From Candidatus Pacearchaeota archaeon (GTDB lineage: Archaea > Nanobdellota > Nanobdellia > Pacearchaeales > UBA284), in the NCBI GenBank assembly GCA_038886195.1, contig JAVZYK010000001.1, positions 163,456 through 227,455 of the forward strand: 64,000 nt of DNA. Reading direction: 5' to 3'. The notes below the pieces were generated by a model. The model saw only the letters and a program-made list of their open reading frames with translations. It ran no database searches and was not told the origin of the DNA. The first letter of the stretch is position 1; each line of letters starts with the position of its first letter. The position numbers and the translations under genes are program-made. Below are positions 5,993 through 58,016 of the stretch, in pieces.

Positions 5993-6007
5993 ATTAAATG
6001 TAAAAAA

Positions 6008-7054
6008 ATGATAAGTCAAAAACAAATAGAACAAGTAAGAACATTTCTGGAAAAAACGCAAAATCCTTTGTTTTTTTTTGATAATGATGTAGATGGCTTG
6101 GCTTCTTTTCTTTTGCTTCGTAGATTTTGTGATAAAGGAAAAGGCATTGCTATTAAAAGCTTTCCTGATTTGAATACTTCTTATTCTCGTAAAATCGAAG
6201 AATTTAAGCCAGATTATATTTTTGTTCTAGACAAACCATTGATTGAGAAAGGTTTTAGAGAAGCAGCACAACAATTCAATATTCCTATAATATGGATAGA
6301 TCATCATCCAATTCCAGATTATGCAAATGAAAATAACATTTACTATTTCAATCCTTTGACAGAAGGAAAAATTAATGAGCCAGTATCTTATATATGTTAT
6401 AAAATAACGGGAAGAAAAGAAGATGAATGGATAGCAATGATAGGCTGTCTTTCTGACTGGTTTATTCCTGATTTTTCTGAAAATTTCATTAAAGAATATC
6501 CTGAACTATTTTCCAATATAAAAAGTCCTGCAAAGGCTCTGTATGAAACAGAACTTGGAAAAATAATTAAAATTCTTAGTTTTGCATTAAAAGATAGAAC
6601 AAGCAATGTAGTTAAGATGTTAAAAAATTTGCTTACAATTAAAAATCCCAGAGAATTATTAGATGCAAGTTCTCCTAAGATGGTTTCTATATATAAACGA
6701 TTTAATCAAATAAACCGAAGATATGAAAAAATATTAAACAAAGCTAAAGAACTTGCCAAAAATCATAAAAGATTAATTTTCTTCCAATATGGAGGAGATT
6801 TAAGTCTTAGTTCAGAAATTTCTAATGAATTAATATATCTTTTTCCAGATAGAGTAGTTGTTGTTGCATACATTAAAGGAACTAGAGCCAATGTATCAGT
6901 AAGAGGAGTATTTATGAATGTTAGAGAACTAGTGGCAAAGGCTTTAGAAGGAATCGAATCGACAAGTGGCGGCCATGAACATGCCTGTGGAGCTACTTTG
7001 CAAGTTGAAGACTTGCCAAAATTTAGAGACAATTTAATAAAACTTTTAAAATGA
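6008..7054 (+). CDS. DHH/DHHA1 family phosphoesterase (NrnA/DhhP-like; candidate c-di-AMP/pApA phosphodiesterase)
   Basis: Motif I FFFDNDVDGLAS, motif III WIDHHP, and DHHA1 GGHEHACGA. At 348 aa it matches the NrnA/DhhP size class rather than RecJ. It starts 16 nt after the disA stop. Confidence 0.75.
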   Translation: MISQKQIEQVRTFLEKTQNPLFFFDNDVDGLASFLLLRRFCDKGKGIAIKSFPDLNTSYSRKIEEFKPDYIFVLDKPLIEKGFREAAQQFNIPIIWIDHHPIPDYANENNIYYFNPLTEGKINEPVSYICYKITGRKEDEWIAMIGCLSDWFIPDFSENFIKEYPELFSNIKSPAKALYETELGKIIKILSFALKDRTSNVVKMLKNLLTIKNPRELLDASSPKMVSIYKRFNQINRRYEKILNKAKELAKNHKRLIFFQYGGDLSLSSEISNELIYLFPDRVVVVAYIKGTRANVSVRGVFMNVRELVAKALEGIESTSGGHEHACGATLQVEDLPKFRDNLIKLLK

Positions 7055-17692: not shown

Positions 17693-17798
17693 TGCGCCAG
17701 CCGGGATTCGAACCCGGGTAACAACCTCTCTCTATTGGGGATAATAAGGGGTATCCCCTTATTTGGGAGGGTTGTGTCTTGCCACTGGACTACTGGCG
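17693..17798 (-). tRNA. tRNA-Gly(CCC) carrying an anticodon-loop intron of about 35 nt
   Basis: Minus-strand read: GCGCCAG-TA-GTCCAGTGGCAAGAC-A-CAACC-CTCCCA[intron AATAAGGGG...AGAGAG]A-GGTTG-TTAC-CCGGGTTCGAATCCCGG-CTGGCGC-A. The acceptor and T arms pair perfectly, with discriminator A73. The intron lies at the canonical 37/38 site. Confidence 0.75.
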
Positions 17799-17868
17799 CG
17801 CAAATTACTATATATTCTTTAATAAACAAATCTTTATAAATTTTGGTCGTAGTTTAATAAAGTAAAAA

Positions 17869-23084: not shown

Positions 23085-24827
23085 ATGAGCTTGCTAGATA
23101 TTTTTGGAAAAAACAGGAAAATAGAAAACAAAAATAAAAACAAGGATGACATAGAAATAACAGCAACTTATAACTTAAACGAAATAATTGGAGCGCACGA
23201 ATCGAAAGATCAAGAGGAAGTAGCAAAAACAAATAAAATAGAAAAACAGGAGAAGTCAGAAGTGCCTTTTACAATTGTAAAAGAACCGATTGAGAAAACA
23301 ATATTTGTATTTGATGAAGCTTTTGACAGCAACGAAGGAAATTTAATTAAAAGGATAGTAAGAAAACAAAAAGGGATTTCATTTTTCTCTATTTCTAAAA
23401 AAGAAAGTTTTGAAATTATGTCAAAACTTTATAAAAATGAAGGTGAAGATTTGATAATAATAAAAGGAAATTACAAGAATATAGCCTCAGATATAGAAAT
23501 AGAAAATTTTCTAGAAAAAATTTTGAATAATAAAAAGTCAAAAATTTTACGTAGGTCTTTAAGTCTAGAAAATTGCAAGAATGAAAATAAAGACTATAGA
23601 TGGATGATTAGGAACTACTTGAAAAAGTTAAATATAGAAGCAGGATTAAACATTCGTGTTAAAAAAGGTTTAGAAAAAAAGGTGGAAGAAAAAATAGAAG
23701 AAGAATATAGTGAAAATAAATGTGATAAAAAGATTATAGATATTCCTAAACCTTTAGAAGTTGACGAGCCTAAAGTAGAAATGCCTACAGAAGTGCCTGA
23801 TTTTGTTAAAGAAATTCTAGAAGAAGAAAACCCTATTGAATTTATTTTTACAGGCGCCAAAATAGATAAAGAAAAGATAAAGAAGAATGAAGAAAACGAC
23901 ACTTTGTATAATATTGTAATAGATGAAAGTTATAGAAGTAAAATCTCTTTAACTAATGATGAACTTAAAAAATTATCTCTTGCCATTTCGTATGCATGGA
24001 AAAAAATGTTTCCATGGTGTGAAGTTGAAATAAATGAGAATGATTTTATAAGAATTGGGGATTCTATTAGTGAACTAGTTGATGCTATTTCATTTAAACT
24101 TAAAGAAAGAGAAACTGGAAAGTATACTGGAGATGTTATCAAAGTTAATAATGATTTTTTTGTAATATGGAGAAATGGTAGAGATTATTATGCTAAACCT
24201 ACTGAAAAAATAGCTCCATTGCTTGTAGATGTTGCTAAAAAATATAATTTTAATGAAAAAAATTTGGCGGAATATATTAATCCTTTAATAGAGCAAGTTT
24301 TTGAACACTATGTAAAGAAAAAAGGAGTTACGATAGAGCAGATAGTTACAGAGAAAGGAAAAGATGCGAAGGAGTTTGAGTGCAAACCAGGAGTAGCTTA
24401 TGTAGACTTTTCTGACATGTTTGTAAAGGATATAACGGCTTGTATCGAAGAAATTGCTGAAAGTAAAGGTAGTTTGGCCGGTCTGGTCGCAACAGAAGAA
24501 TACAAAGCGCCAGACAGCAACAATGCTGGTGAGATTTACTTGAAAAGAGAAGATCCGAAATTTGCAGAAGTTTTTAAACATTATCCTAAATTAGATAAGT
24601 TGAAGAGCATCGCTACTGGGCCTTTATTTATCAATGCTATTGTTGAAGCATACCATAGCAATATTAATATTAAAATTAAAAAACTAGAGGAAGCGGCATT
24701 GCTTGTCAAAACTTTGCCAAAAGAATATCAAAGCATTGCTTATTCTGTGATTATGGAAATGAAAAAAGAAAGTAAGCATACTCAATCAAATGCTCAATCA
24801 AAACTAAATAAAATTACTTATGCTTGA
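23085..24827 (+). CDS. Hypothetical K/E-rich protein
   Basis: 580 aa with a low-complexity charged N-terminal half. No motif recognised. Confidence 0.4.
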   Translation: MSLLDIFGKNRKIENKNKNKDDIEITATYNLNEIIGAHESKDQEEVAKTNKIEKQEKSEVPFTIVKEPIEKTIFVFDEAFDSNEGNLIKRIVRKQKGISFFSISKKESFEIMSKLYKNEGEDLIIIKGNYKNIASDIEIENFLEKILNNKKSKILRRSLSLENCKNENKDYRWMIRNYLKKLNIEAGLNIRVKKGLEKKVEEKIEEEYSENKCDKKIIDIPKPLEVDEPKVEMPTEVPDFVKEILEEENPIEFIFTGAKIDKEKIKKNEENDTLYNIVIDESYRSKISLTNDELKKLSLAISYAWKKMFPWCEVEINENDFIRIGDSISELVDAISFKLKERETGKYTGDVIKVNNDFFVIWRNGRDYYAKPTEKIAPLLVDVAKKYNFNEKNLAEYINPLIEQVFEHYVKKKGVTIEQIVTEKGKDAKEFECKPGVAYVDFSDMFVKDITACIEEIAESKGSLAGLVATEEYKAPDSNNAGEIYLKREDPKFAEVFKHYPKLDKLKSIATGPLFINAIVEAYHSNINIKIKKLEEAALLVKTLPKEYQSIAYSVIMEMKKESKHTQSNAQSKLNKITYA

Positions 24828-26532: not shown

Positions 26533-28194
26533 CTATTTATTACTTTTACTTAATTTTTTAATCAGAATTTCTCTTATGTTGGCATGTATTTCTTTATTAT
26601 AATTTGGATTATATTTAATTATTTTTTGACAATAATTTGGTTCGGTACAATAGCCTAGAATACATTTCGGTCCTATTAAGTTTTTTAATTCTGGAATGGC
26701 TTCTTTTATCAATTTTTCTTTTATTTCGGTTGTTTCAAGTCTTTCTGGCTCGCAAGTTGTACATAACCTTAATGACAGCTCTCCTAAAGTTAAATTATAT
26801 AAATCATAGGTTTCTAGAGTTCTAACTCTAACACATCTAGGCAATATGTAAATTGCATCTCTGGCTTCGATTCCATTTTGAATCAGATGTTTCATTAACA
26901 AAATTTGTTTTGCAGAAATATCAATGTAGTTAAATAATAAAATTTCTAGTCCTTCTTTTTTTAAGGCAGAAGGAATTACAATTGCTTGTTCAATTTTTTC
27001 TGTTAAATTTTTTAATTTTTTTTCATTTGGACTTTTTTTATATTCTTTAAAATTTTCTTTTAAAGAAATTATAGTTTTATAGGAATTTTCTGCTGCGTAA
27101 TAAATTGATTCAACACATTGCTTTAATGTGGCGTGTCTTTTTTGCTCTCCCCAAACGCGCCATGATATTGCACTTGCAGTTTGTAGATATACTGAATCAT
27201 TATATCTGTCGATTAAATCTCTAAAAGCAAGCAAATTTCTTCTTGCTTTTTTTTCAATTTCTTCTGGATTTTTTAAAGCGTATGTTTCTTTAAGCATTTG
27301 TTCAATCTCAACAATATTTTCTAAAAATCCGTCTGTAAATTTAACATTGAAATTAACGAGAACGGGCTTTAGAGGATTATCATATTCTTTTGCAATTTCT
27401 GTTGCAATGTTTTCTTTCGGAGCTTTAAAAACATTCCAATGTAAATAAGTATCACGCAAAGCGGCTTTTCTTGCATCATAAATTTTTTTCATATTTGCTA
27501 TTTTGACAATTTCTTTTTCTATAATTTCAACAAGATTTTCTATTTCTCTTGGGAAGAAAATTTCGCCTTCATTTCTTTGATACTCGAGCTCATTTGATAA
27601 TGTTATTATTGCTGAAATTGGCAAAACAATATAGAGATTGCCAGAACCATTATAAGCCATCATTTTGCTTGCGATTTGGGGTCCTTCTTTTTCTCCGAAA
27701 GTTTCTATTATTTTTTTATAATTTTCTAGTGCTTTCTGTGAAACTTTTATATAAAGTTCTTTCAGATGGCTATTTTCTTTTTTATTTAAAATTTCTGGAA
27801 CAATTAAATCTTCAATTAATGCTCGTCTGCCGCTTGTTGTAAAACTTCTAGAGTTCACCAAACCAGTTAGCGCAGGATCTATAAATTTGCTTCCTTCAAT
27901 TCCAAGAACTATGCCAGCCGTACCATCAAGAGAATGGCCACGAAGAACTGAACTAGATAGTTTTTTAGTAATAATATCTTCAAGTTCTCCTTTTTGAATT
28001 GCATTTTTAATTTCAAGTTCTAGGCTTTCATTAAATGAAATTTGTTGAGAAACTGCTTTCTGTAAAAAAGCAATAATTATATCAGCTCCTAAAAAATTTT
28101 TTGAAACTATGTTTTTTATTTCAGAACTTTCTATTTCATATCTTGGCCAGTATCCTAGAAGTCTTACCTTTAATCCATCTTTTGACCATTCCAT
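26533..28194 (-). CDS. Hypothetical protein (553 aa), co-directional and immediately downstream of the class II RNR
   Basis: Long ORF with no firm motif. Contains a Cys cluster near the C-terminus (CTTCEP...CILGYCTEPNYC). Confidence 0.45.
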   Translation of the reverse strand: MEWSKDGLKVRLLGYWPRYEIESSEIKNIVSKNFLGADIIIAFLQKAVSQQISFNESLELEIKNAIQKGELEDIITKKLSSSVLRGHSLDGTAGIVLGIEGSKFIDPALTGLVNSRSFTTSGRRALIEDLIVPEILNKKENSHLKELYIKVSQKALENYKKIIETFGEKEGPQIASKMMAYNGSGNLYIVLPISAIITLSNELEYQRNEGEIFFPREIENLVEIIEKEIVKIANMKKIYDARKAALRDTYLHWNVFKAPKENIATEIAKEYDNPLKPVLVNFNVKFTDGFLENIVEIEQMLKETYALKNPEEIEKKARRNLLAFRDLIDRYNDSVYLQTASAISWRVWGEQKRHATLKQCVESIYYAAENSYKTIISLKENFKEYKKSPNEKKLKNLTEKIEQAIVIPSALKKEGLEILLFNYIDISAKQILLMKHLIQNGIEARDAIYILPRCVRVRTLETYDLYNLTLGELSLRLCTTCEPERLETTEIKEKLIKEAIPELKNLIGPKCILGYCTEPNYCQKIIKYNPNYNKEIHANIREILIKKLSKSNK

Positions 28195-28262: not shown

Positions 28263-30740
28263 TCAACTACAAGGACTCCAGCCACATTCTGGGCATTTGC
28301 CCTCTCTACAACCTTCTGCTGGAATTAGAATCCCTTTACCGCATTGTTTACATACACCACCTTTTTTGCCTTCTTTTAAATAAAAAAGATTTTCTTTAAC
28401 AATTTTTTCTAGTTGTTCATTTTTTCCATTTTGAGCTAAAAATTTTTCTAAAGTTATTGCGATTGCGTCAGGACAAGATAGAACTTGTTGCTCTCCTTTA
28501 ATATACGGTCTATTACACCTTATCCCTCGAAGTTGTTCTATTATTTTTATAGGATCTATGTTTGCTCTCAATATTGTTGAAGCTAAACGACAGAGTCCTT
28601 CGGTTTGTGCAAGCAAACAACCCCCGGCTTTTCCTATGCTAGCAAAAATTTCGCGAGGATATTTCTTTGAATTTTTTTCTTCATAGGAAATATTAATATA
28701 GATAGTTCCACATCCAGTTTTTTCTTTATATCTTATTGCAGGAAGCATTTCTGGTAATTTGCGCATTTCAACAAATTCTTTTTCTTGTTCTTTTAATTTT
28801 GATTCTAAGACTTGTTTCTCTCTGCTTCCATCTCTATAAACCGTAATGCCTTTGCATCCTAGCTTGTAGGCTAAAAGATACGCTTTTTTTACATCTTCTA
28901 CTGTAGCATTGTAAGGCAAGTTTATTGTTTTACTTACTGCATTGTCAGTATATTTTTGAAATGCCGCTTGCATTTTGACATGCCATTCTGGCGCGATATC
29001 TCGAGCAGTAACAAAAATTCTTTTTATATTTTCTGGAACTTCATCTATGCCTTTTAAACTGCCATTATTTTTTTCAATTTTTTCAATTATAGTTTTATAA
29101 TCTATACCTATTTCTTCAAGAGCTTTTTCAAGTTCGTTTACAACGAATTTTCTTTTTTGACCATCTGCATCAGTGTGAGTATAAATTAAACCAAAATAAG
29201 GTTCAATGCCGCCGGAAGCTCCTGCGATTATTCCAATTGTGCCTGTTGGAGCAATTGTTGTTGTAGTAGCGTTTCTAATTGGTTCTTTATAGATACTATA
29301 TTCTATCGCTGGAAAAGGCCCTCTTTCTTGAGCTAATTTTTTGGATTCGTCTTTTGAAATTCTATTTATAAAATCCATCACTTCTTCTGCAAGTTTTAGA
29401 GCTTCATCTGAATCATATGGTATTCTTAATTTAACAAGCATGTCTGCCCAACCCATAATTCCTAAACCTATTTTTCTTGTTTTACGAACCATTTCATCGA
29501 TTTGTTTTATTGGATAATTCGACATGTCTATAACATTGTCGAGAAAATGAGTGGCTCTTCTTACAATTTCTTCCAATCTTTCATAATTAACTTTGCGATC
29601 TTTTACCATCAATCCTAAATTTATTGATCCAAGATTACAAGCTTCATATGGCAACAATGGTTGTTCTCCACAAGGATTGGTTGATTCAATTTTACCCAAA
29701 CCCGGAACTGTATTGTATTTGTTTATAGTATCTATAAATAAAACTCCTGGCTCTCCATTTCGCCAAGCCGATTGGGCTATAATATCAAACACTTCTCTTG
29801 CTTTTAATTGAATTTCTCCTTTTTCATTTACTCGACATTCTAGATTACTATTAGTTTCTATAACTTTTCCATTAACTATTTTAAAATTCAATTCATCTTC
29901 TCGAATCAATCCTTCTTCTACACTTTTTAGATCATTTTTTATATCTTCAATAGTGAAAGGATATATTTCTCCTTTAAATCTATTATATAGAGTAAAATAC
30001 TCATCTTTTTCTAAAGCTTCCATAAATTTATCGGTCAACAGAACTGAAAAATTAAAGCTTGGAAAAGAACCTTCTTCAGTTTTAGCTAAAATAAATTCTA
30101 AAGAATCTGGATGATCGACAATCATGCAACCCATGTTCGCTCCTCTTCTGAAACCTCCTTGATTGATAGAATTAGTTATAGCAGCGTAAGCTCCTATAAA
30201 AGAAACAGGTCCAGAGGCTTTGCCATAAGTAGTTGAAACAAAATGATTTTTTCTTCTAATATTAGAAAAACTAAATCCAGTGCCGCCGCCACTTTTATGT
30301 ATGGTGCCAGCATTGGCTATTTGTGTTAAAATTCCGTTAGGGCCATTCATATCGTCGTCTATAGGTAATACAAAACATGCGGCTAGTTGTTGCATTTCTC
30401 TACCAGCATTCATTAAAGTTGGAGAATTAGGAACAAATTCTCTTTTAATCAACATTTCATAAAATTCTTCACCAGTTTTTTCAAAAGCTGTTTCTCCTCT
30501 ATAACAAAGATCAGGATACGCTATATTTGCAGCAACTCTCGCCATCAATCCTTTTACATCTTCAAGAGCAATCCCCTTTTCATCTTTCATAAAATATCTT
30601 TTTTTTAAAATAGACAAGGCATTTTCTGTAAATTCTGGTTCATAATCTAAAGTTATTAATTTTTTTTCAAGCGCCGCCGTTTTAGTTTTATCATATTTAT
30701 CACACAATCTATAAATTACAAAATTTAATTTCTGTTCCAT
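28263..30740 (-). CDS. nrdJ: Class II adenosylcobalamin-dependent ribonucleotide reductase
   Basis: Active-site region NPCGEQPLLPYEACNLGSINL and the glycine-rich GWADML region. A C-terminal Cys4 zinc ribbon, CKQCG...CPECG. 825 aa. Confidence 0.85.
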   Translation of the reverse strand: MEQKLNFVIYRLCDKYDKTKTAALEKKLITLDYEPEFTENALSILKKRYFMKDEKGIALEDVKGLMARVAANIAYPDLCYRGETAFEKTGEEFYEMLIKREFVPNSPTLMNAGREMQQLAACFVLPIDDDMNGPNGILTQIANAGTIHKSGGGTGFSFSNIRRKNHFVSTTYGKASGPVSFIGAYAAITNSINQGGFRRGANMGCMIVDHPDSLEFILAKTEEGSFPSFNFSVLLTDKFMEALEKDEYFTLYNRFKGEIYPFTIEDIKNDLKSVEEGLIREDELNFKIVNGKVIETNSNLECRVNEKGEIQLKAREVFDIIAQSAWRNGEPGVLFIDTINKYNTVPGLGKIESTNPCGEQPLLPYEACNLGSINLGLMVKDRKVNYERLEEIVRRATHFLDNVIDMSNYPIKQIDEMVRKTRKIGLGIMGWADMLVKLRIPYDSDEALKLAEEVMDFINRISKDESKKLAQERGPFPAIEYSIYKEPIRNATTTTIAPTGTIGIIAGASGGIEPYFGLIYTHTDADGQKRKFVVNELEKALEEIGIDYKTIIEKIEKNNGSLKGIDEVPENIKRIFVTARDIAPEWHVKMQAAFQKYTDNAVSKTINLPYNATVEDVKKAYLLAYKLGCKGITVYRDGSREKQVLESKLKEQEKEFVEMRKLPEMLPAIRYKEKTGCGTIYINISYEEKNSKKYPREIFASIGKAGGCLLAQTEGLCRLASTILRANIDPIKIIEQLRGIRCNRPYIKGEQQVLSCPDAIAITLEKFLAQNGKNEQLEKIVKENLFYLKEGKKGGVCKQCGKGILIPAEGCREGKCPECGWSPCS

Positions 30741-30789: not shown

Positions 30790-31272
30790 TTAACTTATTT
30801 CTTTTATAGTTTTCCTAAAATCTGAAACGTCTTGAAATTCGCGGTAAACTGAAGCGAAACGAACATAAGCAACTTTATCTAATTTTTTTAAAGCTTGCAT
30901 AACGAGCTCTCCTATGAATTTGGAAGGCACTTCTGGGCCATAGGCTCTAATCTTTGATTCAATATCATTAACTATTTTATCTATTGCTTCTTGACTTATC
31001 GGTCTTTTTTCACAAGCTTTCATAATTCCTGCCGCAAGTTTTTCTCTAGAAAAAGGTTCTCGCCGTTTATCTTTTTTAATGACGCGAACGTTTGTCTCTA
31101 CGCGCTCATATGTAGTGAATCTTTTTTTACATTTTTTATTAAGACATTCTCTTCTGCGTCTAGTAATGTTTTGAGTATCTCTTTTATCTATCACTCTTGT
31201 TTCGCTATTGCAATAAGGACACCTCATTTTTTTAATCACAACATGTTGTATTTTTAATTTCAATGACAACAA
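30790..31272 (-). CDS. nrdR: Transcriptional repressor NrdR (zinc ribbon plus ATP-cone)
   Basis: [17 protein letters not shown]...[22 protein letters not shown], then an ATP-cone, [16 protein letters not shown].... It lies immediately upstream of nrdJ. Confidence 0.85.
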
Positions 31273-31342
31273 TATATTGTTAATTATTTATAAATATTAT
31301 TGTTATGAAATATAGGTTTATAAAAATTTCCTTTAGAAATGA

Positions 31343-32002
31343 CTATTCAGTTATTATATAAACACGATTTTTTCCTAAAGCTTTGGCTTTGTAAAGCGCC
31401 ATATCTGCAAGATGTAACATATGATGAATTCCTTTTTTTGTTAATTGAGAAACCCCGGCACTTATCGTTACTTTATCGTATCCTTTTTCTAAATCTTTGG
31501 AAACTGCGGGAATTTTTATTTCTGATATTCTCTTTCTTATTCTTTCTGCCACTTCTTTTGCTTTTTCTATATCTGTATCGGGAAGTACAATAATAAATTC
31601 TTCACCTCCATAGCGAGCAACAAAATCTTCCTTGCGAGTTAATTTCTGTACTTCTTTAGTAACTGTCTTTAATGCCATATCTCCCTGAAGATGGCCAAAT
31701 CGATCGTTATATTGTTTAAAATTATCGATATCGAATAAGATGACTGAAAGGGGCAAGCCGTGTCTTATTGCTCGTTCCATTTCGTGGCTTAGCAATTCAT
31801 CAAGAATGCGACGATTAAAAACACCAGTTAGATGATCTCTAGTAGCAAACAAATAAAGTTCATTGAATAATCTTTCTAAGACCGTTGACTTTGGCCGGGG
31901 TTTTTTTATTTCTGTTTTAATTTCTTTTGATAATTGATATAAAGTATCAAACCTCTTTTCTTTATTCCTATTATCTTTTTTTATTTCTTTCTTATTCATC
32001 AT
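31343..32002 (-). CDS. Stand-alone GGDEF-domain diguanylate cyclase with an intact I-site
   Basis: RDHLTGVFNRR...ILFDIDNFKQYNDRFGH..GD...RKEDFVARYGGEEFIIVLPD...ADMALYKAKALGKNRV. The active-site GGEEF sits five residues after RKED, an RxxD I-site. A 50-aa K-rich N-terminal leader and no sensor domain. Confidence 0.8.
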   Translation of the reverse strand: MMNKKEIKKDNRNKEKRFDTLYQLSKEIKTEIKKPRPKSTVLERLFNELYLFATRDHLTGVFNRRILDELLSHEMERAIRHGLPLSVILFDIDNFKQYNDRFGHLQGDMALKTVTKEVQKLTRKEDFVARYGGEEFIIVLPDTDIEKAKEVAERIRKRISEIKIPAVSKDLEKGYDKVTISAGVSQLTKKGIHHMLHLADMALYKAKALGKNRVYIITE

Positions 32003-32015
32003 CTTTTATCTATTT

Positions 32016-34652
32016 TTAATCGTTTTTATATTTTATATTTTTATATATTTCAAAAACAACAAGACCTAAAATAGCCAGTAAAAAGGTCATTAATAATTCT
32101 TCTGACTTTAAAGGAATAAGCTTAAAGATTAGATTTAAAGGACTATAAATTATTATTAAATGAAGTGCTATTGAAGCAATTACAGCAATTATGAGATATT
32201 TATTAGAAAAAAAACCTATTTTTTGTAATGGTTTATTTGAACGACATGTAAAGACAAAGAACATTTGGAATAAAATAGATACAGTTAAAACAATCGTTCT
32301 CGTTTTATCAATTTCAAACTTTGAAAGGCCAATATAAAAAGCAATGAGCTCTATACCAAATGCCAAAATGCCAGCCATCAATATGAAAGTTAACATTCCT
32401 TCTAGAATGTTTTTTTCTTTAAGCGGTTTTCTTTTCATAACATTTTCGCCTTTTTCTATACTTAGTGCCAAAGCAGGAATGCTATCGGTAATAAGGTTCA
32501 TCCATAAAATTTGTAATGGCAATAGAGGCAAAGGCAATTTAAGCAAAATAGAATACAGAATTAAAAATATTTCAGAAAAATTAACGCTAAGAAGAAATTT
32601 AGTAAATTTTTTTGTGTTATCATAAACGATGCGGCCTTCTTCTATTGCTTTTACTATTGAAGCAAAATTATCATCCATAAGAACTATATCGGCAACGTCC
32701 CGAGTTACATCTGTTCCGCGAATGCCCATTGCTATTCCGATATCTGCTTTTTTCAAAGCGGGCGCATCATTAATACCATCACCTGTAACTGCAACTATCT
32801 CGCCTTGTTCTTTAAGCAAGGTTACAATCCTTAATTTTTGTTCTGGAGATGTTCTGGCAAAAATTACAGTTTCTTTTAATTTGGCTTTTAGTTCTTCATC
32901 GCTCAACATTTCTATTTCTTTACCATTCATTGCTTCTCCTACTAGGCCTATTTTTTTAGCCACTGCTTTTGCGGTCAATAAAGAATCTCCAGTAATCATT
33001 TTTACTTCTATACCTGCTTCTTTACATATTTTGATTGCATCTTTAACTTCGGGTCTTGGAGGATCGAGCATGCCTTGTAATCCTACAAAAACTAAATTAG
33101 TTTCGGCTTCTTTTTGATTGACTTTTTCTATTTTTTTAAAGGCAAATCCTAAAACTCTCAAGCCTTGTTCTGCAAGTTCTTCATAAACTTTTAAAAGCTC
33201 CTGTTTTCTTTTTTCATTAAGCAATAAATATTTTCCTTCTACGAATTCATATTTACATCTTTCTATTATTGTTTCAGGAGCTCCTTTTACATAACTATAC
33301 AATTCAGAATTGCTTTTTCTTACAATAGACATCATCTTTCTTGCAGAAGTAAATGTAAATTCTTTAACTCGCAATTCATTTTTTGTTAATTCCTCTTTAT
33401 TTAAACCACAAAAAATCGCAGCTCTCAATAAAGCTTGTTCTGTAGGATCGCCAAAATAAATTGTTTTGCCGTCAAGTTTCTCTGCTCTAGCATTATTACA
33501 TAGACAATTTATTTTTAATAACATAGAAGCAGTTTCGTTCTTTTTCACATCATCACGAGCTTGATGGAGCTCTTGAATTTTATTGTTATAAAATAATTTT
33601 ACCACCTCTATTTTTTCTTCTGTCATTGTTCCTGTTTTGTCAGAACAAATCACTGTTACTCTGCCCAAAGTTTCAGCTGCTGGCAGTTTTCTTATCAAGC
33701 TATTGGCTTTGAACATTCTTTGAACAGCCAAAGCTAAACAAATAGTTATAACTGCCGGCAATCCTTCAGGTACTGCCGACACTGCCAAACTTATTGCAGT
33801 AAGCATTGCTTCTATTCTATCTAAACCAAAATAAATTCCAAGAATTGCGATAATAAAACAAAGAGCCATAATAATAATGCCTAATTTTATAGCAAAACTA
33901 TCAATTGTCTTTTGCAAAGGTGCTTTTTCTTGTTTTGTTTTTTGAATAAGAGAAGCAATTTTACCGAATTCTGTATTCATTCCTGTTGCTACAACGATGG
34001 CTTTACAAGAACCTCTTACTACTGTGGTGCCAGAGTAGATCATATTTTGTCTTTCTGCAATAACTGTTTCTGGTTTGATTTTTTTGGCAAATTTATCAAC
34101 AGGCGCGCTTTCTCCAGTTAAAATAGCTTCATTACACTGAAGTTCGTGGCTTTCTATTATTCTGGCGTCTGCCATTATCTTGTCTCCTTCTTCTAGTATG
34201 AGAATATCTCCTGGAACGATTTCTGTAGCTGAAATTTCATAAAGAATGTTTTTTCTTAATACTCTTGCTTTAGGCACTAAAGATTTTTTTAGATTTTGAA
34301 TTGCTTTTTCTGCCTTATAATTTTGAATAAAACCAATAAAAGCATTTAATACAACGATAGCCAAAATAGCATAAAAATCAAGCAAATGAGCTGCCAGTAA
34401 GGAAATTATTGCTGCTATTAAAAGCAAATAAATAAAAAATGAATTAAATTGTGAAAGCAAGATTATAATGGGCCTTATTTTATGTCTTTCTTTTATTTCG
34501 TTTTTGCCATATATTTTTAGCCTTTCTTGCACTTCTTCTACATTAAGACCTTCTTTGGTTGAATTTAATTGTTTTAATACTTCCTCTTCTTCAAGGGCAT
34601 GCCACTCTATTACAGAATTTTTATTTTTTAATTTATTATCCTCTTTTTTCAT
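32016..34652 (-). CDS. P-type cation-transporting ATPase (P2-type, Ca2+/Mg2+-like)
   Basis: Phosphorylation motif ICSDKTGTMT, hinge motif TGDGINDAPALKKADIGIAMG, TGES-like TGESAPV, and 10 predicted TM helices. 878 aa. Confidence 0.85.
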   Translation of the reverse strand: MKKEDNKLKNKNSVIEWHALEEEEVLKQLNSTKEGLNVEEVQERLKIYGKNEIKERHKIRPIIILLSQFNSFFIYLLLIAAIISLLAAHLLDFYAILAIVVLNAFIGFIQNYKAEKAIQNLKKSLVPKARVLRKNILYEISATEIVPGDILILEEGDKIMADARIIESHELQCNEAILTGESAPVDKFAKKIKPETVIAERQNMIYSGTTVVRGSCKAIVVATGMNTEFGKIASLIQKTKQEKAPLQKTIDSFAIKLGIIIMALCFIIAILGIYFGLDRIEAMLTAISLAVSAVPEGLPAVITICLALAVQRMFKANSLIRKLPAAETLGRVTVICSDKTGTMTEEKIEVVKLFYNNKIQELHQARDDVKKNETASMLLKINCLCNNARAEKLDGKTIYFGDPTEQALLRAAIFCGLNKEELTKNELRVKEFTFTSARKMMSIVRKSNSELYSYVKGAPETIIERCKYEFVEGKYLLLNEKRKQELLKVYEELAEQGLRVLGFAFKKIEKVNQKEAETNLVFVGLQGMLDPPRPEVKDAIKICKEAGIEVKMITGDSLLTAKAVAKKIGLVGEAMNGKEIEMLSDEELKAKLKETVIFARTSPEQKLRIVTLLKEQGEIVAVTGDGINDAPALKKADIGIAMGIRGTDVTRDVADIVLMDDNFASIVKAIEEGRIVYDNTKKFTKFLLSVNFSEIFLILYSILLKLPLPLLPLQILWMNLITDSIPALALSIEKGENVMKRKPLKEKNILEGMLTFILMAGILAFGIELIAFYIGLSKFEIDKTRTIVLTVSILFQMFFVFTCRSNKPLQKIGFFSNKYLIIAVIASIALHLIIIYSPLNLIFKLIPLKSEELLMTFLLAILGLVVFEIYKNIKYKND

Positions 34653-34753: not shown

Positions 34754-36475
34754 ATGGATTTTTTAAACATAACCAGCAATGCAATTTTGGAGTTTCAGAA
34801 ATCAATTAGCCATATATATTTAGATAGTTCCATTTTATTAAGCGTTTCTTTTGTCGTTATAGTGGCAGCCATTTTGGCTTTAATATCTAAATTGCTTAAA
34901 CAAGAGTTCATTCTTGCCTATATTGTTGCTGGCATTGTTATTGGGCCTTTAGCTTTAGGATTAATTAAAGATAAAGTGATGATTAATGGTTTTGCTGAAA
35001 TTGGCATAACTTTTTTGCTTTTTACAGTCGGTTTGGAAATGAATTACAAAAAACTTAAAGAAAGCTTAGGAATTTCTGCAGTTGCTGGTATAATTCAAGT
35101 TGTAACCGTAGCTTTAGTGAGTTTTTTTATTCTTATCGCTTTTGCTTTTTCAAAAACAGAGGCGCTTTGGCTAGGAATTGCAATAGCCTTTAGTTCTACA
35201 ATTGTAGTTACAAAAATCCTTGCTGATAAAAATGAATTAAATACATTGCACGCCAGATTCATTATTGGCATTATGCTTGTACAAGACTTGCTTGCCATAA
35301 TTGCCTTGGCTATTTTAACAAAGGAATTTTCTATTTTATTTGTATTTTATACTTTAATAAAAATATTTATTCTTTTATTAGCCGCTTTTCTTGCAGTTTT
35401 TATTGCCAAAGGCATATTTGAAAAGGCTTCTTCATCAGTAGAGCTTTTATTCATAATTTCATTGGCCTTCTTATTCATCTTCGTTCTTATTACTTATTTT
35501 CTTAATTTTTCAATAGCCATAGGAGCTTTTGTTGCCGGCATAATTCTTGCTAATACGCCCTATAAACTTGAGATAGAAACAAGAACCAAAGCCTTGAGAG
35601 ATTTTTTTTCAGTAATGTTTTTTGTTTCAATAGGCATGATGTTAACAAGTATTAATCAAAGTATTTTGCTGCCTTTGATTCCCATTCTTTTTGTTTTAAT
35701 AATTATTGAACCTTTAGTTACTGCTTTAATTTTAAGATTTAAGGGATATAAAGCTAAAACATGTTTAGATATTGGTTTTTCTTTTGCTCAACTCAGCGAA
35801 TTTACTTTAATTTTAATGCTTACTGCTCTAAGTTTAGGCATAATAACACAGCGCGCTTTTGATTTAATTGTTTTAACTGCAATAATTTCCATTGCTATAA
35901 CTCCTTATACAATGAAGCTAAGCAAACCTTTCTACAAGTTATTTAACTTTATAGATAAATTTCCCACTACAAAAGAAGAAAAGAACTATAATTTAGGAAA
36001 GAAAACAATTTTACTTTTGGGTTGTCATAGAATGGGTTCTGTTTTCCTCAAAAATCTTGACAAATATAAAGAAAAATTGCTTGTGGTTGATTTCAACCCA
36101 GAAATTGTAAGTGCTCTGGCAAGACAAAAAATATCTTGTGTTTATGGAGATGTTAGCAATGTTGAATTTATGAATTCCTTGCCTTTAAATGAGATTAAAG
36201 TTGCAATATCTACAATTCCTAAAAAAGAAATTAACGCTTTATTAATTAAAAATCTTAAAGCAAGAAACAAAAATGTCTTTATTAGCGTAGTGGCTGAAAA
36301 AATTCATGATGCTTTAGAACTATATGATTTGGGAGCAGATTATGTAATTTTGCCTTTAATAACTGGCGCAGAGCACAGCCTTGAGTTAATTAAAAAAATG
36401 AACAAACAGGAATTTAAAAAATTCAGAGAACAGCAGATAAAATATTTAGAAGAACTGCATAGAACTCTTTATTAA
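34754..36475 (+). CDS. Kef-type monovalent cation:proton antiporter (CPA2) with C-terminal TrkA-N/RCK domain
   Basis: About 12 TM helices in the N-terminal 400 aa. Then a Rossmann RCK, ILLLGCHRMGSVFLKNL...VVDFNPE. Confidence 0.7.
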   Translation: MDFLNITSNAILEFQKSISHIYLDSSILLSVSFVVIVAAILALISKLLKQEFILAYIVAGIVIGPLALGLIKDKVMINGFAEIGITFLLFTVGLEMNYKKLKESLGISAVAGIIQVVTVALVSFFILIAFAFSKTEALWLGIAIAFSSTIVVTKILADKNELNTLHARFIIGIMLVQDLLAIIALAILTKEFSILFVFYTLIKIFILLLAAFLAVFIAKGIFEKASSSVELLFIISLAFLFIFVLITYFLNFSIAIGAFVAGIILANTPYKLEIETRTKALRDFFSVMFFVSIGMMLTSINQSILLPLIPILFVLIIIEPLVTALILRFKGYKAKTCLDIGFSFAQLSEFTLILMLTALSLGIITQRAFDLIVLTAIISIAITPYTMKLSKPFYKLFNFIDKFPTTKEEKNYNLGKKTILLLGCHRMGSVFLKNLDKYKEKLLVVDFNPEIVSALARQKISCVYGDVSNVEFMNSLPLNEIKVAISTIPKKEINALLIKNLKARNKNVFISVVAEKIHDALELYDLGADYVILPLITGAEHSLELIKKMNKQEFKKFREQQIKYLEELHRTLY

Positions 36476-50088: not shown

Positions 50089-50478
50089 ATGTCAAGATAT
50101 GGGTGCGGAATTTGTGGCAAAATAGCAACACATATTGCAATAATTTACTATCCTTTTATAAAAGACATGTATGTGTCAACTGACTATTTGATTTGCTCTG
50201 ACAAAAATTGTCAACAAGCAATTAGCAGAGAACTTACTGAAGGCTCAAGAGACAAAAATGTTCAGATTTATCCTTTGAATTTTGATTCCTTAAAACTAAT
50301 TCCAGATCAATATCGAGAAGAAAGAGAAAAATTAAAGAAGATTATTTTACAGAGTAATTTGGCTCGCGGGATAGAGAAAAAAGCATTAGAAAACTTGAAA
50401 CAAACAAAACAAGACAAACCCACTGACTTAAAGCTAATCCAAGGAAATTTATTTCATATTCTCGAAGAAAATCATTAA
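50089..50478 (+). CDS. Hypothetical Cys-containing protein
   Basis: 129-aa ORF with CGIC...C..C. Its 3' end overlaps the convergent lgt-like gene by 137 nt, so the ORF may be shorter or spurious. Confidence 0.25.
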   Translation: MSRYGCGICGKIATHIAIIYYPFIKDMYVSTDYLICSDKNCQQAISRELTEGSRDKNVQIYPLNFDSLKLIPDQYREEREKLKKIILQSNLARGIEKKALENLKQTKQDKPTDLKLIQGNLFHILEENH

Positions 50479-51136
50479 AAAAACGAAAGAAAGAATAAAA
50501 CAGAAGGAAAAATAAAAACATCGAACTTCTTTTTTCTAGAAGTTTTTTGAATCTCGTTTCGTAGCCTTGTTCTTTTATCTGTTTAAATCTTAAAAGAATA
50601 AAAAATAATAATAGAGCGTAAAAAGATTCATAGAGTTGAGTTGGATGTCTTGCAATGTCGTTTGGAGTCTGGATTGCCCAAGGCAAAGAGCTTTGAATGC
50701 CATAATCATCCCAATTCAAAAAACAACCTACTCTTGTTATTGCAATCGCGAGCAATAGATAAGGAGCGACAATGTCAAGAATTTGGCTAAAAGTTATGTC
50801 TTTCTGTTTTCTTGTGTAGAGCCATACAAATAACAAACTAAGAAAAGCGCCATAACTTGTTATGCCTCCTCGCCATGTCATGAAAATTTCTAAAGGTTTT
50901 TGCCAGAAATATGAAAAATGTTCAAAAACATAAAATAGACGAGGGCCTACAGTTGCGCCAATCAAAATTAATAAAGCCAAATTGCAAATGTGCTTATCTT
51001 GAATTTTTTGTTTTTTGGCTTCGCGCCAAGTTAGTAATAGAGCAGTAATAAACCCAACAACAAATATAAAACCCCATGTAAAAACTTTAAAGTTTCCTAT
51101 TTGAAATAAAACATGTAAAGGTTCGAATTGAATCAT
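50342..51136 (-). CDS. lgt: Prolipoprotein diacylglyceryl transferase (Lgt) homologue
   Basis: 7 TM helices. GPRLFYVFEH, WRGGITSYGAFLS (Lgt WxGGLxxHGG-like) and RVGCFLNWDDYG (Lgt RIGNFxNxE-like). 264 aa, a typical Lgt length. Confidence 0.65.
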   Translation of the reverse strand: MIQFEPLHVLFQIGNFKVFTWGFIFVVGFITALLLTWREAKKQKIQDKHICNLALLILIGATVGPRLFYVFEHFSYFWQKPLEIFMTWRGGITSYGAFLSLLFVWLYTRKQKDITFSQILDIVAPYLLLAIAITRVGCFLNWDDYGIQSSLPWAIQTPNDIARHPTQLYESFYALLLFFILLRFKQIKEQGYETRFKKLLEKRSSMFLFFLLFYSFFRFFNDFLREYEINFLGLALSQWVCLVLFVSSFLMLFSLSREPNYSVK

Positions 51137-51570: not shown

Positions 51571-51927
51571 ATGAAAAACATATTCAATATAAAAAATTTT
51601 AGAAAAATTTTGGAAGAAATTATAGATGACTACACAATATTATATAAAAAAGGACCTTTCATATTGAAAGAAAAAAAACTTAAAACAAAAAATCACAAAT
51701 ATCGTACAGATAAAGGTTACATTGACGAAGAAAAGGGAATTATAGTGATTAATTATCTGCTTTCTAAAGAAGAAAGAGCAATAACCTTAAATCATGAGCT
51801 AATTCATGGTAAATTCCCAAATTTAAGTGAAGATAAAGTAGAAAACTTGGCATTAAAATTATTTAATAAATATGGTATAGGTTATGATTTTTATAAACCA
51901 AGAATAAATCAAAAAAAGAAAAGATGA
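51571..51927 (+). CDS. Small HExxH-motif protein (SprT/WLM-like minimal metallopeptidase?)
   Basis: ITLNHELIHGKFP in a 118-aa basic protein. Weak. Confidence 0.3.
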   Translation: MKNIFNIKNFRKILEEIIDDYTILYKKGPFILKEKKLKTKNHKYRTDKGYIDEEKGIIVINYLLSKEERAITLNHELIHGKFPNLSEDKVENLALKLFNKYGIGYDFYKPRINQKKKR

Positions 51928-53195
51928 AAATGACAAAAGAAAGAAAAGATAAAAAAATATTGAAGAGTGTTTATAAAAACATTAGACAGTTGCAAATTGA
52001 AAATAATCAAAGTTATTGTAATAATTTTTTTGAATTTACAAATAATTTATATCCTTGGGCCAAAAAGTTAGAAGATATCAATCAAAACCCAAGTCCTTTG
52101 CTTGCTTTTTGTATCGGAATTGATACGAGAGAATCTAACTATCTTAAACAAATTGGAATTGAAAACAATAAACAAATTTTGGATATAGTTTTAGTTAATG
52201 AATTTTTAAATTATATTCTAAAAAATACCAATCTTGATGAAGAGGAATATAAGTATCAAAATCTTGATGAATGTTTGAATTATTTTTTAAATCAAAAAAA
52301 TCCATTAAAAAAAGAAAAACGTAAAGGATCTTTTTTAAAAAAGATTTTTAAAAAAAATGAAAAAGATACGAATGAAGAAACTTTAGGAAAAGCCTTAGAA
52401 GAAAAATTTGAATTAAACAAAGAAAAATTATGTGACTACATAAATAACTTTACAAATAATCTTTACACTTCTTTTATTGAAATTCTAAAAAAAATGAATG
52501 GAAAACTTAATGAATTAAATCTTTTAGAAAATTATAAAGAAAGTAAGGAAAAAATAGATAATCTTAAAAAAATTGGAATTGAAAAGAAAATATATATTAA
52601 AGAAAAAAATGAAGAAAAACTTTTGAGCGACAAAGAAATTAAAGATATTGCTATAAATTATGCTTTAAAAGAAATAGATTTTATTAAAGACAACATTTCT
52701 TTAGTGAATAATTATGAATTCTATAAATTCTTTTTTCAAGACGCTGTTCAAGATCATTATTCTTTTTTAAAAGAATTCTTACTAAGCAATATTGAAAATG
52801 ATAATGAAATTGAAATGATTAATAAATTGGATGAAATCGTTGAAAAAAAGAAAGAAATTTTTTCTGAAAATTTATCGGAATTACAAGATGAACTTCTTGA
52901 AAGCGCTCAGGAGAAGGCGCAGAGTGGAAATTTAAAATACAAGGAAGATTTATTTAATTTTATAAATCTTTCAATAAACTATAGTCAAATTTTAGAAGAG
53001 GATAAAGAAGAAATAAAAATATTATATAATATTTATAATCCAGATTTACATGTCAAGATGAATGAAAAAAATAAAGAAGAGACATTGCCTCTTTATAAAT
53101 TCTATAAAAATTTATCAGAAACAAGTTTAATTAAGAATATCCTTAATATAGAATTAAGTTATATAAAAGCGAAGAATCATGCGAAAAATTTATAA
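51924..53195 (+). CDS. Hypothetical N/K/E-rich protein
   Basis: 423-aa low-complexity ORF. Its start overlaps the upstream stop, so the two look like an operon. Confidence 0.35.
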   Translation: MKMTKERKDKKILKSVYKNIRQLQIENNQSYCNNFFEFTNNLYPWAKKLEDINQNPSPLLAFCIGIDTRESNYLKQIGIENNKQILDIVLVNEFLNYILKNTNLDEEEYKYQNLDECLNYFLNQKNPLKKEKRKGSFLKKIFKKNEKDTNEETLGKALEEKFELNKEKLCDYINNFTNNLYTSFIEILKKMNGKLNELNLLENYKESKEKIDNLKKIGIEKKIYIKEKNEEKLLSDKEIKDIAINYALKEIDFIKDNISLVNNYEFYKFFFQDAVQDHYSFLKEFLLSNIENDNEIEMINKLDEIVEKKKEIFSENLSELQDELLESAQEKAQSGNLKYKEDLFNFINLSINYSQILEEDKEEIKILYNIYNPDLHVKMNEKNKEETLPLYKFYKNLSETSLIKNILNIELSYIKAKNHAKNL

Positions 53196-53342: not shown

Positions 53343-54803
<1,461 letters not shown>

Positions 54804-54885
54804 ATAAATTTTTTTATGGCTGAAGAAGTCCTGAATGTTTTGCCCTTACAATAATTTTAAAAATACTACGGCTCTTAAAAAATAA

Positions 54886-54958
54886 GGGCCTGTAGTTCAG
54901 CGGTAGAATGCCTCCCTTGCACGGAGGAGGTCCCGGGTTCGATTCCCGGCGGGTCCAT
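54886..54958 (+). tRNA. tRNA-Ala(TGC) in the 16S-23S spacer
   Basis: GGGCCTG-TA-GTTCAGCGGTAGAAT-G-CCTCC-CTTGCAC-GGAGG-AGGTC-CCGGGTTCGATTCCCGG-CGGGTCC-A. A G3:U70 alanine identity pair is present. Confidence 0.9.
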
Positions 54959-55044
54959 AATATTCAAAAAACGTTATATTTTAATAAAAATGAAGTAGGT
55001 AAAAGCAATTTTACCTACGGAGTTTGATGCTTAATTTTTAAGCA

Positions 55045-57960: not shown

Positions 57961-58016
57961 AAACTAAACTATTCCTTGTACAACGTCGATATTAAAAAGA
58001 AACAATGAAAAAGAAT

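Follow-up and report, generated by a model that had tools for sequence, protein, structure and literature searches.

A stand-alone gene encoding a GGDEF-domain protein, a putative diguanylate cyclase, is located within a 64,000-nucleotide stretch of DNA from a Candidatus Pacearchaeota archaeon (assembly GCA_038886195.1, contig JAVZYK010000001.1, positions 163,456 to 227,455 of the forward strand), the whole of which is hereafter termed the window. The presence of the GGDEF domain was confirmed and the gene is, practically beyond doubt, genuinely archaeal. Judged from its residues, the protein is probably an active synthase of c-di-GMP, the cyclic dimer of guanosine monophosphate. Taken as a whole, the observations are likely best explained by a chromosomal Pacearchaeota gene for a minimal diguanylate cyclase, with the mechanism and evolution described below.

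Catalytic Domain and Active Site

The gene and its catalytic features are located as follows, with coordinates given as positions in the window.

31343 to 32002, minus strand: stand-alone GGDEF gene, putative diguanylate cyclase, 219 amino acids (aa), ATG start, from the list of open reading frames (ORFs)
31364 to 31846, minus strand: GGDEF catalytic domain, aa 53-213, from the Pfam envelope and alignments to structures 5euh, 3ign, and 3i5c
31823 to 31837, minus strand: the "wide-turn" motif DHLTG (aa 56-60), after which comes N63-R64-R65, read from the sequence
31703 to 31732, minus strand: DIDNFKQYND, aa 91-100, with metal-binding D91 and guanine-contacting N99, read from the sequence
31625 to 31636, minus strand: inhibitory site (I-site) RKED (RxxD), aa 123-126, read from the sequence
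31595 to 31609, minus strand: active-site (A-site) motif GGEEF, aa 132-136, invariant across the family

A preliminary description of this DNA had reported a full GGDEF domain with all catalytic hallmarks in an archaeal ORF, and the Pfam search bore this out: PF00990 was matched over its full length (profile positions 1-161 of 161) with E = 2.1e-47 and 161.3 bits, against a threshold of 23.8. The NCBIfam model TIGR00254 was matched with E = 3e-50 and 170 bits, against a cut-off of 37.4. Other Pfam matches of the ORF, GGDEF_GdpP at 24 bits and GGDEF_2 at 21 bits, were below their cut-offs. A GdpP-type identity was rejected, since 24 bits lies under the cut-off of that family, in comparison with 161 bits for PF00990. 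The PleD, SiaD, and DgcR equivalogs of NCBIfam were also rejected, with scores far under their cut-offs; these and other full-length equivalog models score low because the catalytic domain alone is matched. In phmmer alignments to the solved cyclases 5euh, 3ign, and 3i5c, GGEEF is paired with GGEEF, and the RxxD motif is likewise aligned without gaps, and therefore the GGEEF assignment is not a misalignment. The possibility of a degenerate GGDEF-like fold was tested and refuted by the high full-length score, the presence of all catalytic residues, and the gap-free alignment of GGEEF.

The structure was modeled with AlphaFold (AF2) from 30 orthologues. The model displayed the GGDEF fold, with a mean predicted local distance difference test score (pLDDT) of 82.5 and values mostly above 85 from about residue 80. 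A Foldseek comparison with the PDB placed 3ign, 6eib, and 4zvf at template modeling scores (normalized to the target) of 0.83-0.88 to the model, which superposes at 1.8-2.1 Å on GGDEF structures bound to c-di-GMP or to guanosine triphosphate (GTP) or a GTP analogue. The ferredoxin-like GGDEF fold is found, in this predicted structure, by both AF2 and Foldseek.

Residues of the active site are conserved throughout the family. D56, L58, T59, G60, and N63 are invariant in the family alignment and R64 is at least 90% conserved, N63-R64-R65 representing the position of the secondary I-site arginine. D108, the Asp that sets GTP specificity, comes after DIDNFKQYND, within GHLQGD. D91, D93, N99, D108, and GGEEF are identical in all 56 orthologues; K207 is also identical across them, with two truncated sequences stopping before it. 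With a constant offset of 236, we take the PleD equivalents to be D327 (metal) for D91, N335 for N99, D344 for D108, and K442 for K207, while PleD E370 has its counterpart within GGEEF. K211 sits at the position of PleD R446, where family members have either K or R (G[KR]N). The C-terminal Lys/Arg was counted as present, with a caveat, because K211 is a conservative replacement. The I-site lies where it had first been described, five residues before GGEEF: RKED is read at aa 123-126, and exactly five residues (FVARY) separate D126 from G132. Among the 56 orthologues, R123 is replaced by K in one and D126 by Y in one, while in the 59-member family R123 is found in 57 (the other two have Lys) and D126 in 58. 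Product inhibition is expected, since the RxxD motif and the N63-R64-R65 arginine are both conserved.

An Asp at the position of D108 together with GGDEF or GGEEF denotes a GTP-specific diguanylate cyclase, a Ser at this position goes with synthesis of cyclic GMP-AMP (cGAMP) in Hypr enzymes, which are strictly GGDEF, and the combination of Ser with GGEEF is inactive (PMC6456294). As Asp108 and GGEEF occur in all members, the expected product is c-di-GMP, and the same residues rule against the identity of a Hypr/cGAMP synthase. That a different nucleotide is made, such as 3',3'-cGAMP or cyclic di-adenosine monophosphate (c-di-AMP) by a Hypr or promiscuous enzyme, or only linear pppGpG, is therefore very improbable. 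GGDEF enzymes of altered specificity do exist (PMC6456294), and the genome possesses c-di-AMP chemistry in the form of DisA and a DHH/DHHA1 protein at 4883-7054. Against this stand the combination of Asp with GGEEF, which marks a pure diguanylate cyclase (PMC6456294), and the dedicated DisA, by which c-di-AMP is already covered.

The same invariance bears on a catalytically silent GGDEF domain acting as a scaffold or as a sensor of c-di-GMP or GTP, in the manner of GdpS, LapD-type, or GdpP-type proteins. Such roles are documented, for example the recruitment of DgkB by S. aureus GdpS (PMC11962490); no partner phosphodiesterase or receptor was found nearby, and the weak matches to GGDEF_GdpP and GGDEF_2 point in this direction. 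However, silent domains normally lose A-site residues, whereas in this family neither GGEEF nor any ligand of the metal, base, or phosphate varies among members of 44-99% identity, with a ratio of nonsynonymous to synonymous substitution rates (dN/dS) of about 0.05-0.08, and the two weak matches reach 24 and 21 bits in comparison with 161 bits for PF00990. A silent domain is accordingly improbable, and synthesis of c-di-GMP is the preferred reading.

Archaeal Origin of the Contig

The archaeal identity of the contig is established primarily by its ribosomal RNA (rRNA) operon.

53343 to 57970, plus strand: archaeal 16S - tRNA-Ala - 23S operon (Rfam, tRNA-Ala call), 21 kb from the GGDEF ORF

The Rfam model SSU_rRNA_archaea was matched completely at 53343-54803 with 1392 bits, and LSU_rRNA_archaea at 55067-57970 with 2490 bits. 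In the Pfam scan of the 53 window ORFs, genes of archaeal or eukaryotic type flank the GGDEF gene on both sides, including L15e, L10e, S6e, deoxyhypusine synthase, aIF5B, eIF2-gamma, and Rpp14, with a class I CCA-adding enzyme gene 4.5 kb from the GGDEF ORF. The GC content is about 0.30 throughout the window, the rRNA excepted. The GGDEF gene has a GC content of 0.324, and its GC content at third codon positions (GC3) is 0.227, in comparison with 0.16-0.29 for its neighbors.

Mis-binned bacterial DNA or a chimeric assembly is the default suspicion in the literature, where archaeal GGDEF or HD-GYP matches in metagenome-assembled genomes (MAGs) other than one accepted case may be contamination (PMC5847659; bioRxiv 2021.11.05.467447), and nrdR, the P-type ATPase, Lgt, and DisA in the window also look bacterial. 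This was tested and refuted. The contig carries an archaeal rRNA operon, with translation and ribosomal genes on both sides of the locus; the GC content of about 0.30 is uniform and the GC3 resembles that of the neighbors; independent assemblies of four different sources contain the locus again, a 710-kb single-contig genome being among these assemblies; the divergence of orthologues parallels that of flanking archaeal genes; and no bacterial sequence exceeds 51% identity among the matches listed. Contamination can be given only a negligible probability.

Apart from the operon, a tRNA match of 107 nt was observed at 17693-17799 on the minus strand (Rfam, 52 bits), which was not called by ARAGORN and is probably an intron-containing archaeal tRNA. 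Similarly long tRNA matches occur in two related loci, L003 (18274-18388) and L006 (15438-15563).

Orthologues and Evolution

A large protein search returned about 56 short proteins (approximately 205-265 aa if complete) with 47-99% identity, followed by a gap in score, after which bacterial proteins of at most 51% identity appeared, mostly Rec-GGDEF response regulators. Those bacterial matches that carry a name are from Desulfobacterota, Thermodesulfovibrio, and Desulfotalea. The family clade comprises at least 59 clusters with 44-99% identity, and five close matches already bear the automatic NCBI label 'GGDEF domain-containing protein [Candidatus Pacearchaeota archaeon]', Pacearchaeota being a clade of Nanobdellati (DPANN). 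In a profile search of 1.84 billion representatives, the top of the ranking was dominated by multi-GGDEF proteins with additive scores; P0036, P0030, and P0033 were the only family representatives standing out as full-length single-stretch matches. A scan of genome contigs with degenerate family patterns (ARYGGEEF, D[IV]D[NDH]FKxYN) yielded at least 80 loci, and those listed were all bacterial with at most 48% identity.

The genomic contexts of 11 orthologues were analyzed in independent assemblies (NCBI, JGI, ENA, and Logan). Archaeal marker genes were found in 10 of them, the remaining locus (L092) carrying no diagnostic markers. An 88%-identical orthologue (GCA_026413745.1) displays exactly the gene order of the window, namely the CCA enzyme, Kef, P-ATPase, GGDEF, nrdR, nrdJ, and a Thy1-like gene. 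In CP061211.1, a single contig of 710,724 bp, and in two others, the order is P-ATPase, GGDEF, CaCA exchanger, nrdR, and a ribonucleotide reductase (nrdD or nrdJ), while one further relative has Kef, GGDEF, nrdR, and nrdJ. Two relatives with 60-62% identity carry aIF5B, S6e, eIF2-gamma, Lgt, GGDEF, CaCA, nrdD, nrdG, thermosome, and TFS genes. Among distant members, the GGDEF gene adjoins aEF2, aCPSF1, proteasome, and IleRS genes in one, has AlaRS, a RIO/Bud32-like kinase, L35Ae, and aEF1-alpha nearby in another, and L24e, S28e, and L7Ae in a third. A representative Rec-GGDEF outgroup was located in a bacterial context (LexA, HU, S1, CMK).

Divergence of the GGDEF gene proceeds in step with that of its neighbors. 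Identities to L008 are 79% for GGDEF, 78% for the CCA enzyme, and 81% for NrdR; to L001 they are 70%, 67%, and 76%, respectively; and to L003 they are 60% for GGDEF, 61% for the CCA enzyme, and 68% for aIF5B. The dN/dS in comparison with the closest orthologue was 0.077 (0.054 for the domain and 0.14 for the N-terminus), values that are rough owing to a dS of about 1.5; dN was higher in the N-terminal region (aa 1-52) than in the domain. In a neighbor-joining (NJ) tree of the domain, all sequences from archaeal contexts, including P0058 and P0061, formed one clade, recovered in 160 of 300 bootstrap replicates. Contamination, chimerism, and recent transfer are rejected because of the synteny, the parallel divergence, the dN/dS, and the single NJ clade. 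The simplest reading of these data is probably one old acquisition from bacteria followed by vertical descent, in which the ancestor was probably a bacterial Rec-GGDEF response regulator that lost its receiver. The substitution ratios indicate that the gene is under strong purifying selection since its acquisition.

N-Terminal Helical Module

The preliminary description had recognized no sensor domain and only a Lys-rich leader ahead of the catalytic domain. The first part holds, as no recognizable sensor is present, while the second requires correction, as aa 17-53 constitute a conserved helical module.

31955 to 32002, minus strand: variable Lys-rich leader, aa 1-16, with no conserved columns and a pLDDT of about 53
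31844 to 31954, minus strand: conserved helical module, aa 17-53, with two helices separated by a K34-x-x-P37 kink, the second helix being the coiled-coil stalk

Depending on the orthologue, the leader is between about 3 and about 45 residues long. The segment after this Lys-rich tail follows the consensus KRFxxLxxLSKEIKxEIxKxxPxxxxLxKLFNELYxxATKDHLTG. Conservation reaches at least 90% for L21, E31, K34, P37, L42, and F46 in a 30-sequence alignment. L49, Y50, A53, and T54, which are invariant there, are conserved in 53-56 of 59 sequences. The AF2 model predicts a helix at 4-32, a break at 33-38, and a second helix at 39-53 that continues into the domain.

Heptad positions L42, L45/F46, L49, and F52/A53 make up two a-x-x-d-e heptads, the last e being located at -3 of DxLT. 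Coiled-coil linkers of this a-x-x-d-e type set the distance between the catalytic domains in DgcR, WspR, and PadC (PMC8041772). In the phmmer alignment to the active GCN4-WspR fusion (3i5c), residues 26-53 are paired with its GCN4 zipper. The d, e, and flanking positions of the linker are L/V/I, F, and Y in the archaeal family, in comparison with A/L, N/Q, and E/K in bacterial relatives. From these residues, which stand in place of the weak contacts of the bacterial linkers, a stable, non-switching dimer is predicted, and the sequence suggests that the coiled-coil register is fixed rather than switchable. A stable dimer of this kind would in turn give a constitutive cyclase limited by its expression level and by the I-site. 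It would also agree with descent from a Rec-GGDEF ancestor whose receiver was lost. On balance, the protein is somewhat favored to dimerize via its N-terminal coiled coil and to be controlled mainly by product and expression.

Genomic Neighborhood

The genes adjacent to the GGDEF gene are as follows.

32016 to 34652, minus strand: Ca2+-type (IIA/IIB) P-type ATPase (Pfam, NCBIfam), directly upstream of the GGDEF gene with a 13-nt gap
34754 to 36475, plus strand: CPA2/Kef-type cation:proton antiporter with an RCK (TrkA_N) domain (Pfam), divergent from the ATPase gene
31238 to 31280, no strand: two perfect 12-bp palindromes, ACAACATGTTGT (31238-31249) and ACAATATATTGT (31269-31280), in the spacer between the GGDEF gene and nrdR
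30790 to 31227, minus strand: nrdR (ATG at 31227; the ORF reaches 31272), downstream of the GGDEF gene; NCBIfam NrdR 176 bits, cut-off 125
28263 to 30740, minus strand: nrdJ, encoding a class II ribonucleotide reductase that depends on B12; NCBIfam NrdJ_Z 678 bits, cut-off 400

The position of the gene between nrdR-nrdJ and a P-type ATPase on one strand, as originally described, agrees with the ORF list, Pfam, and NCBIfam. The best NCBIfam matches of the ATPase are of PMR1/SERCA type, and only the PMCA-type model was passed (519.5 bits, cut-off 507). The Kef-type antiporter resembles KefB/YbaL in NCBIfam, under the equivalog cut-offs, and is kept beside the cluster in L001, L008, L091, L094, and L095. 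The P-ATPase and GGDEF genes are adjacent in L001, L091, L094, and L095 with gaps of about 4-41 nt, and they are probably co-transcribed. CaCA proteins are the Na+/Ca2+ exchanger family. A CaCA gene follows the GGDEF gene in L001 (10642-11595), L094 (8675-9628), L003 (10788-11729), L006 (10671-11609), and L091 (9389-10351), in the last of which a family 2 glycosyltransferase (GT2) gene lies between the two; the gap between GGDEF and CaCA genes in relatives is 1-112 nt. The window and its two closest relatives (L095 and L008) have lost CaCA, and the GGDEF gene abuts the nrdR promoter there.

Relatives with different outer flanks nevertheless show the same tight junctions, P-ATPase-GGDEF and GGDEF-CaCA. 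In L003 and L006, the immediate upstream neighbor of the GGDEF gene is Lgt. Because the GGDEF-CaCA pair survives this change from ATPase to Lgt upstream, mild evidence is provided for a linkage to cation (Ca2+) export. A functional tie of the GGDEF protein to Ca2+/cation export is possible, if doubtful.

Two further observations concern these genes. The window itself contains a gene for Lgt (prolipoprotein diacylglyceryl transferase), a bacterial lipoprotein-maturation enzyme, at 50342-51136 on the minus strand (Pfam, E = 7.6e-56), which adds to the signs that the lineage has a set of genes derived from bacteria. In L003 and L006, a processive-type GT2 (chitin/cellulose-synthase-like) is located about 9-10 kb downstream.

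On the other side of the GGDEF gene, the NrdR protein contains the Zn_ribbon_NrdR and ATP-cone domains (Pfam). The centers of the two palindromes are 31 bp apart, just upstream of the nrdR ATG. A search of the window with the NrdR-box pattern returned 3 matches against 0.7 expected, the two exact ones being ACAACATGTTGT and ACAATATATTGT, and their resemblance to tandem bacterial NrdR boxes presumably extends to the spacing of about 31 bp. The spacer also carries TATA-like runs. Owing to these TATA-like elements and NrdR-box-like palindromes, the nrdR-nrdJ unit is considered separate from the GGDEF transcript, and co-transcription of GGDEF with nrdR was rejected on the same grounds. The nrdR-nrdJ unit is probably autoregulated. 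NrdR is 73-81% identical in L001, L008, L091, and L094. This archaeon and its relatives thus seem to possess a working NrdR repressor regulon (nrdR-nrdJ) that is complete and of bacterial type.

Directly downstream of nrdJ, a 553-aa protein is encoded at 26533-28194 (minus strand), with no more than a weak, partial match to ThyX/Thy1 in its C-terminal part (E = 2.8e-6) and no match in the NCBIfam scan. It occupies the same position in L008, L094, and L095, with 47-69% identity in L008 and L094, and may be a divergent thymidylate-synthase-like enzyme in an operon for supply of deoxynucleoside triphosphates.

Proposed Mechanism

In the proposed mechanism, the N-terminal helices (aa 17-53) of two chains would pair in a parallel coiled coil, bringing the two GGDEF domains face to face. 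Each domain would bind GTP-Mg2+ through D91, E134, N99, D108, and K207, residues that are present and invariant, and the pair would condense two GTP molecules to c-di-GMP. Output would be capped by binding of the product at the RxxD I-site (R123/D126) and the NRR arginine, residues that are observed in the sequence. Lacking a sensor domain, the enzyme would be controlled by expression, probably with the upstream Ca2+-type P-ATPase, by product inhibition, and possibly by a partner acting on the stalk. The gene would have been acquired once from a bacterial Rec-GGDEF regulator, have lost the receiver, and have been inherited vertically, usually in a cation-export cluster composed of P-ATPase, GGDEF, and CaCA exchanger genes.

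Several points weigh against this mechanism. There is no archaeon in which c-di-GMP has ever been detected (PMC10249747). The N-terminal helices, through which dimerization is predicted in the model, have a modest pLDDT of 50-74, and bootstrap support for the single archaeal clade is moderate (53%). The divergent loci L007, L089, L092, and L093 have no Ca2+-transporter neighbors, and the Ca2+-transporter link may therefore be inherited gene order. Regarding expression, the 3' end of the ATPase ORF (32003-32060) encodes a K/N/I/Y-rich tail of about 50 nt (coding strand ATATATAAAAATATAAAATATAAAAAC), in which TATA-box-like runs lie 20-45 nt upstream of the GGDEF ATG, possibly by chance at 30% GC; an independent internal promoter may give a leaderless GGDEF mRNA. 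Furthermore, a cyclase without a reader is an orphan in an incomplete pathway. As in the preliminary description, which had noted no EAL, HD-GYP, or PilZ partner in the window, the Pfam scan of the 53 window ORFs returned no EAL, HD-GYP, PilZ, or T2SSE_N/MshEN domain. The same domains were absent from the precomputed Pfam annotation of genes lying up to 8-10 kb from the 11 orthologues. At Rfam gathering thresholds, neither the window nor about 137 kb of related loci yielded a c-di-GMP riboswitch (GEMM-I or GEMM-II). These partner searches covered under a tenth of any one genome.

The Pacearchaeota are regarded as symbionts, the reduced genomes of DPANN archaea make them dependent on other cells (PMC9938205), and no internal reader or eraser was found in the regions scanned, all of which would indirectly suit c-di-GMP aimed at a host or partner cell, for example in manipulating the biofilm or motility of a bacterial neighbor. 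However, the GGDEF gene is linked neither to an exporter nor to a contact apparatus, the I-site points to an intracellular pool under homeostatic control, and the absence of readers refers to less than 10% of a genome. The chance of such partner-directed use is slim.

Cyclic Dinucleotide Genes in the Window

The window also encodes a DisA-type diadenylate cyclase at 4883-5992 (plus strand), with DAC and DisA-linker domains (NCBIfam DisA 366 bits, cut-off 201). It is followed after 15 nt by a DHH/DHHA1 phosphoesterase at 6008-7054 (plus strand), in which the DHH and GGH motifs are intact and for which no PDB sequence relative was found at E <= 0.001. The two genes represent a c-di-AMP synthase/hydrolase-like pair in a DPANN archaeon, the phosphoesterase being a candidate for dinucleotide turnover. 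The gene dacZ is stated to be absent from DPANN (2025, PMC12699388). The genome may use bacterial-type DisA in its place, with two cyclic-dinucleotide cyclases. Since DisA is located in the same 64-kb window as the GGDEF gene, genomes of about 0.7 Mb may retain two cyclic-dinucleotide systems, an unexpected finding in organisms so strongly reduced.

A c-di-GMP circuit of one enzyme, with no canonical erasers or readers and wired to Ca2+/cation export via a P-ATPase-GGDEF-CaCA operon, is conceivable but unlikely. In such a circuit, turnover could proceed through the DHH/DHHA1 enzyme next to DisA. If true, it would be the first archaeal c-di-GMP pathway and would imply new classes of c-di-GMP receptor, for which transporter domains, RCK domains, or ATP-cones are examples. 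Four large ORFs of the window have no significant Pfam family, namely 880-2835 (plus strand, 651 aa), 23085-24827 (plus strand, 580 aa), 51924-53195 (plus strand, 423 aa), and 58710-61625 (minus strand, 971 aa), the last with only a sub-threshold match to RecX_HTH1 (E = 6e-4, 20.1 bits in comparison with 26). They could hide non-canonical signaling or surface proteins.

The old question of whether archaea use c-di-GMP, a messenger regarded as bacterial, is now directly testable. At 219 aa, sensor-less, and probably constitutively active, the protein is a candidate that is easy to express and assay, and, if activity is demonstrated, the search for a non-canonical receptor is tractable in a tiny proteome.

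Comparison with Known Systems

The closest bacterial relatives are the Rec-GGDEF cyclases such as WspR, PleD, and DgcR, with 44-51% identity over approximately aa 45-219. GGEEF, RxxD, the NRR arginine, and the a-x-x-d-e linker ending at -3 of DxLT are common to these enzymes and the archaeal protein. In contrast to them, the archaeal protein has no REC domain (PF00072, Pfam); 52 residues precede the catalytic domain, and the receiver is replaced by a lineage-specific helical segment of about 40 aa containing a KxxP kink. In the archaeal family, aromatic residues occupy the e and flanking positions of the linker (F46 and Y50, invariant or nearly so), whereas the "slippery" linkers of bacteria have weak N/Q/E/K residues. 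Without a REC domain, the protein is not a member of the Rec-GGDEF class, although it is probably derived from one.

In its short parallel coiled coil directly before the GGDEF domain, the protein resembles the GCN4-WspR fusion (3i5c), reported to be highly active (PMC8041772), and DgcB of Caulobacter (6ttr). 3i5c was aligned from aa 26, including the zipper, by phmmer, and both structures were matched by Foldseek over about 190-200 columns. Unlike either of these, the present protein is a natural archaeal one that has a further helix upstream as well as a Lys-rich tail, and its dimer is predicted. The best matches to the catalytic domain are Marinobacter 3ign, GcbC 5euh, and V. cholerae 6eib, with 39-41% identity, E values down to 1e-34, and a root-mean-square deviation of 1.8-3.0 Å. 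These three are fragments of larger sensor proteins, whereas the short archaeal form is the native full length.

Among archaea, the multidomain protein CAJ37382 of Methanocella arvoryzae (REC-PAS-PocR-GGDEF-HD-GYP) has been cited as the only accepted GGDEF protein (PMC5847659; bioRxiv 2021.11.05.467447). In 2021, c-di-GMP was reported as undetected in Haloferax and Sulfolobus, while more than 300 archaeal BLAST matches were recorded, many from MAGs of DPANN and Asgard archaea (PMC8646023), and the literature of 2022 stated that the presence of GGDEF "need[s] to be confirmed in archaeal contigs". Reviews continue to describe c-di-GMP as unreported from archaea. For one lineage, this confirmation is supplied here by the rRNA operon, by synteny across independent assemblies including a single-contig genome, and by purifying selection with all catalytic residues intact. 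A literature search found no paper describing the Pacearchaeota GGDEF family. The present protein shares with CAJ37382 a GGDEF domain in an archaeal genome; by description, the latter is a multidomain protein of one methanogen, whereas the former is a single-domain protein conserved in a DPANN clade. The enzyme itself is a canonical GGDEF cyclase, and what is new is its secure archaeal placement, its conservation, and its minimal form of a stalk plus a domain.

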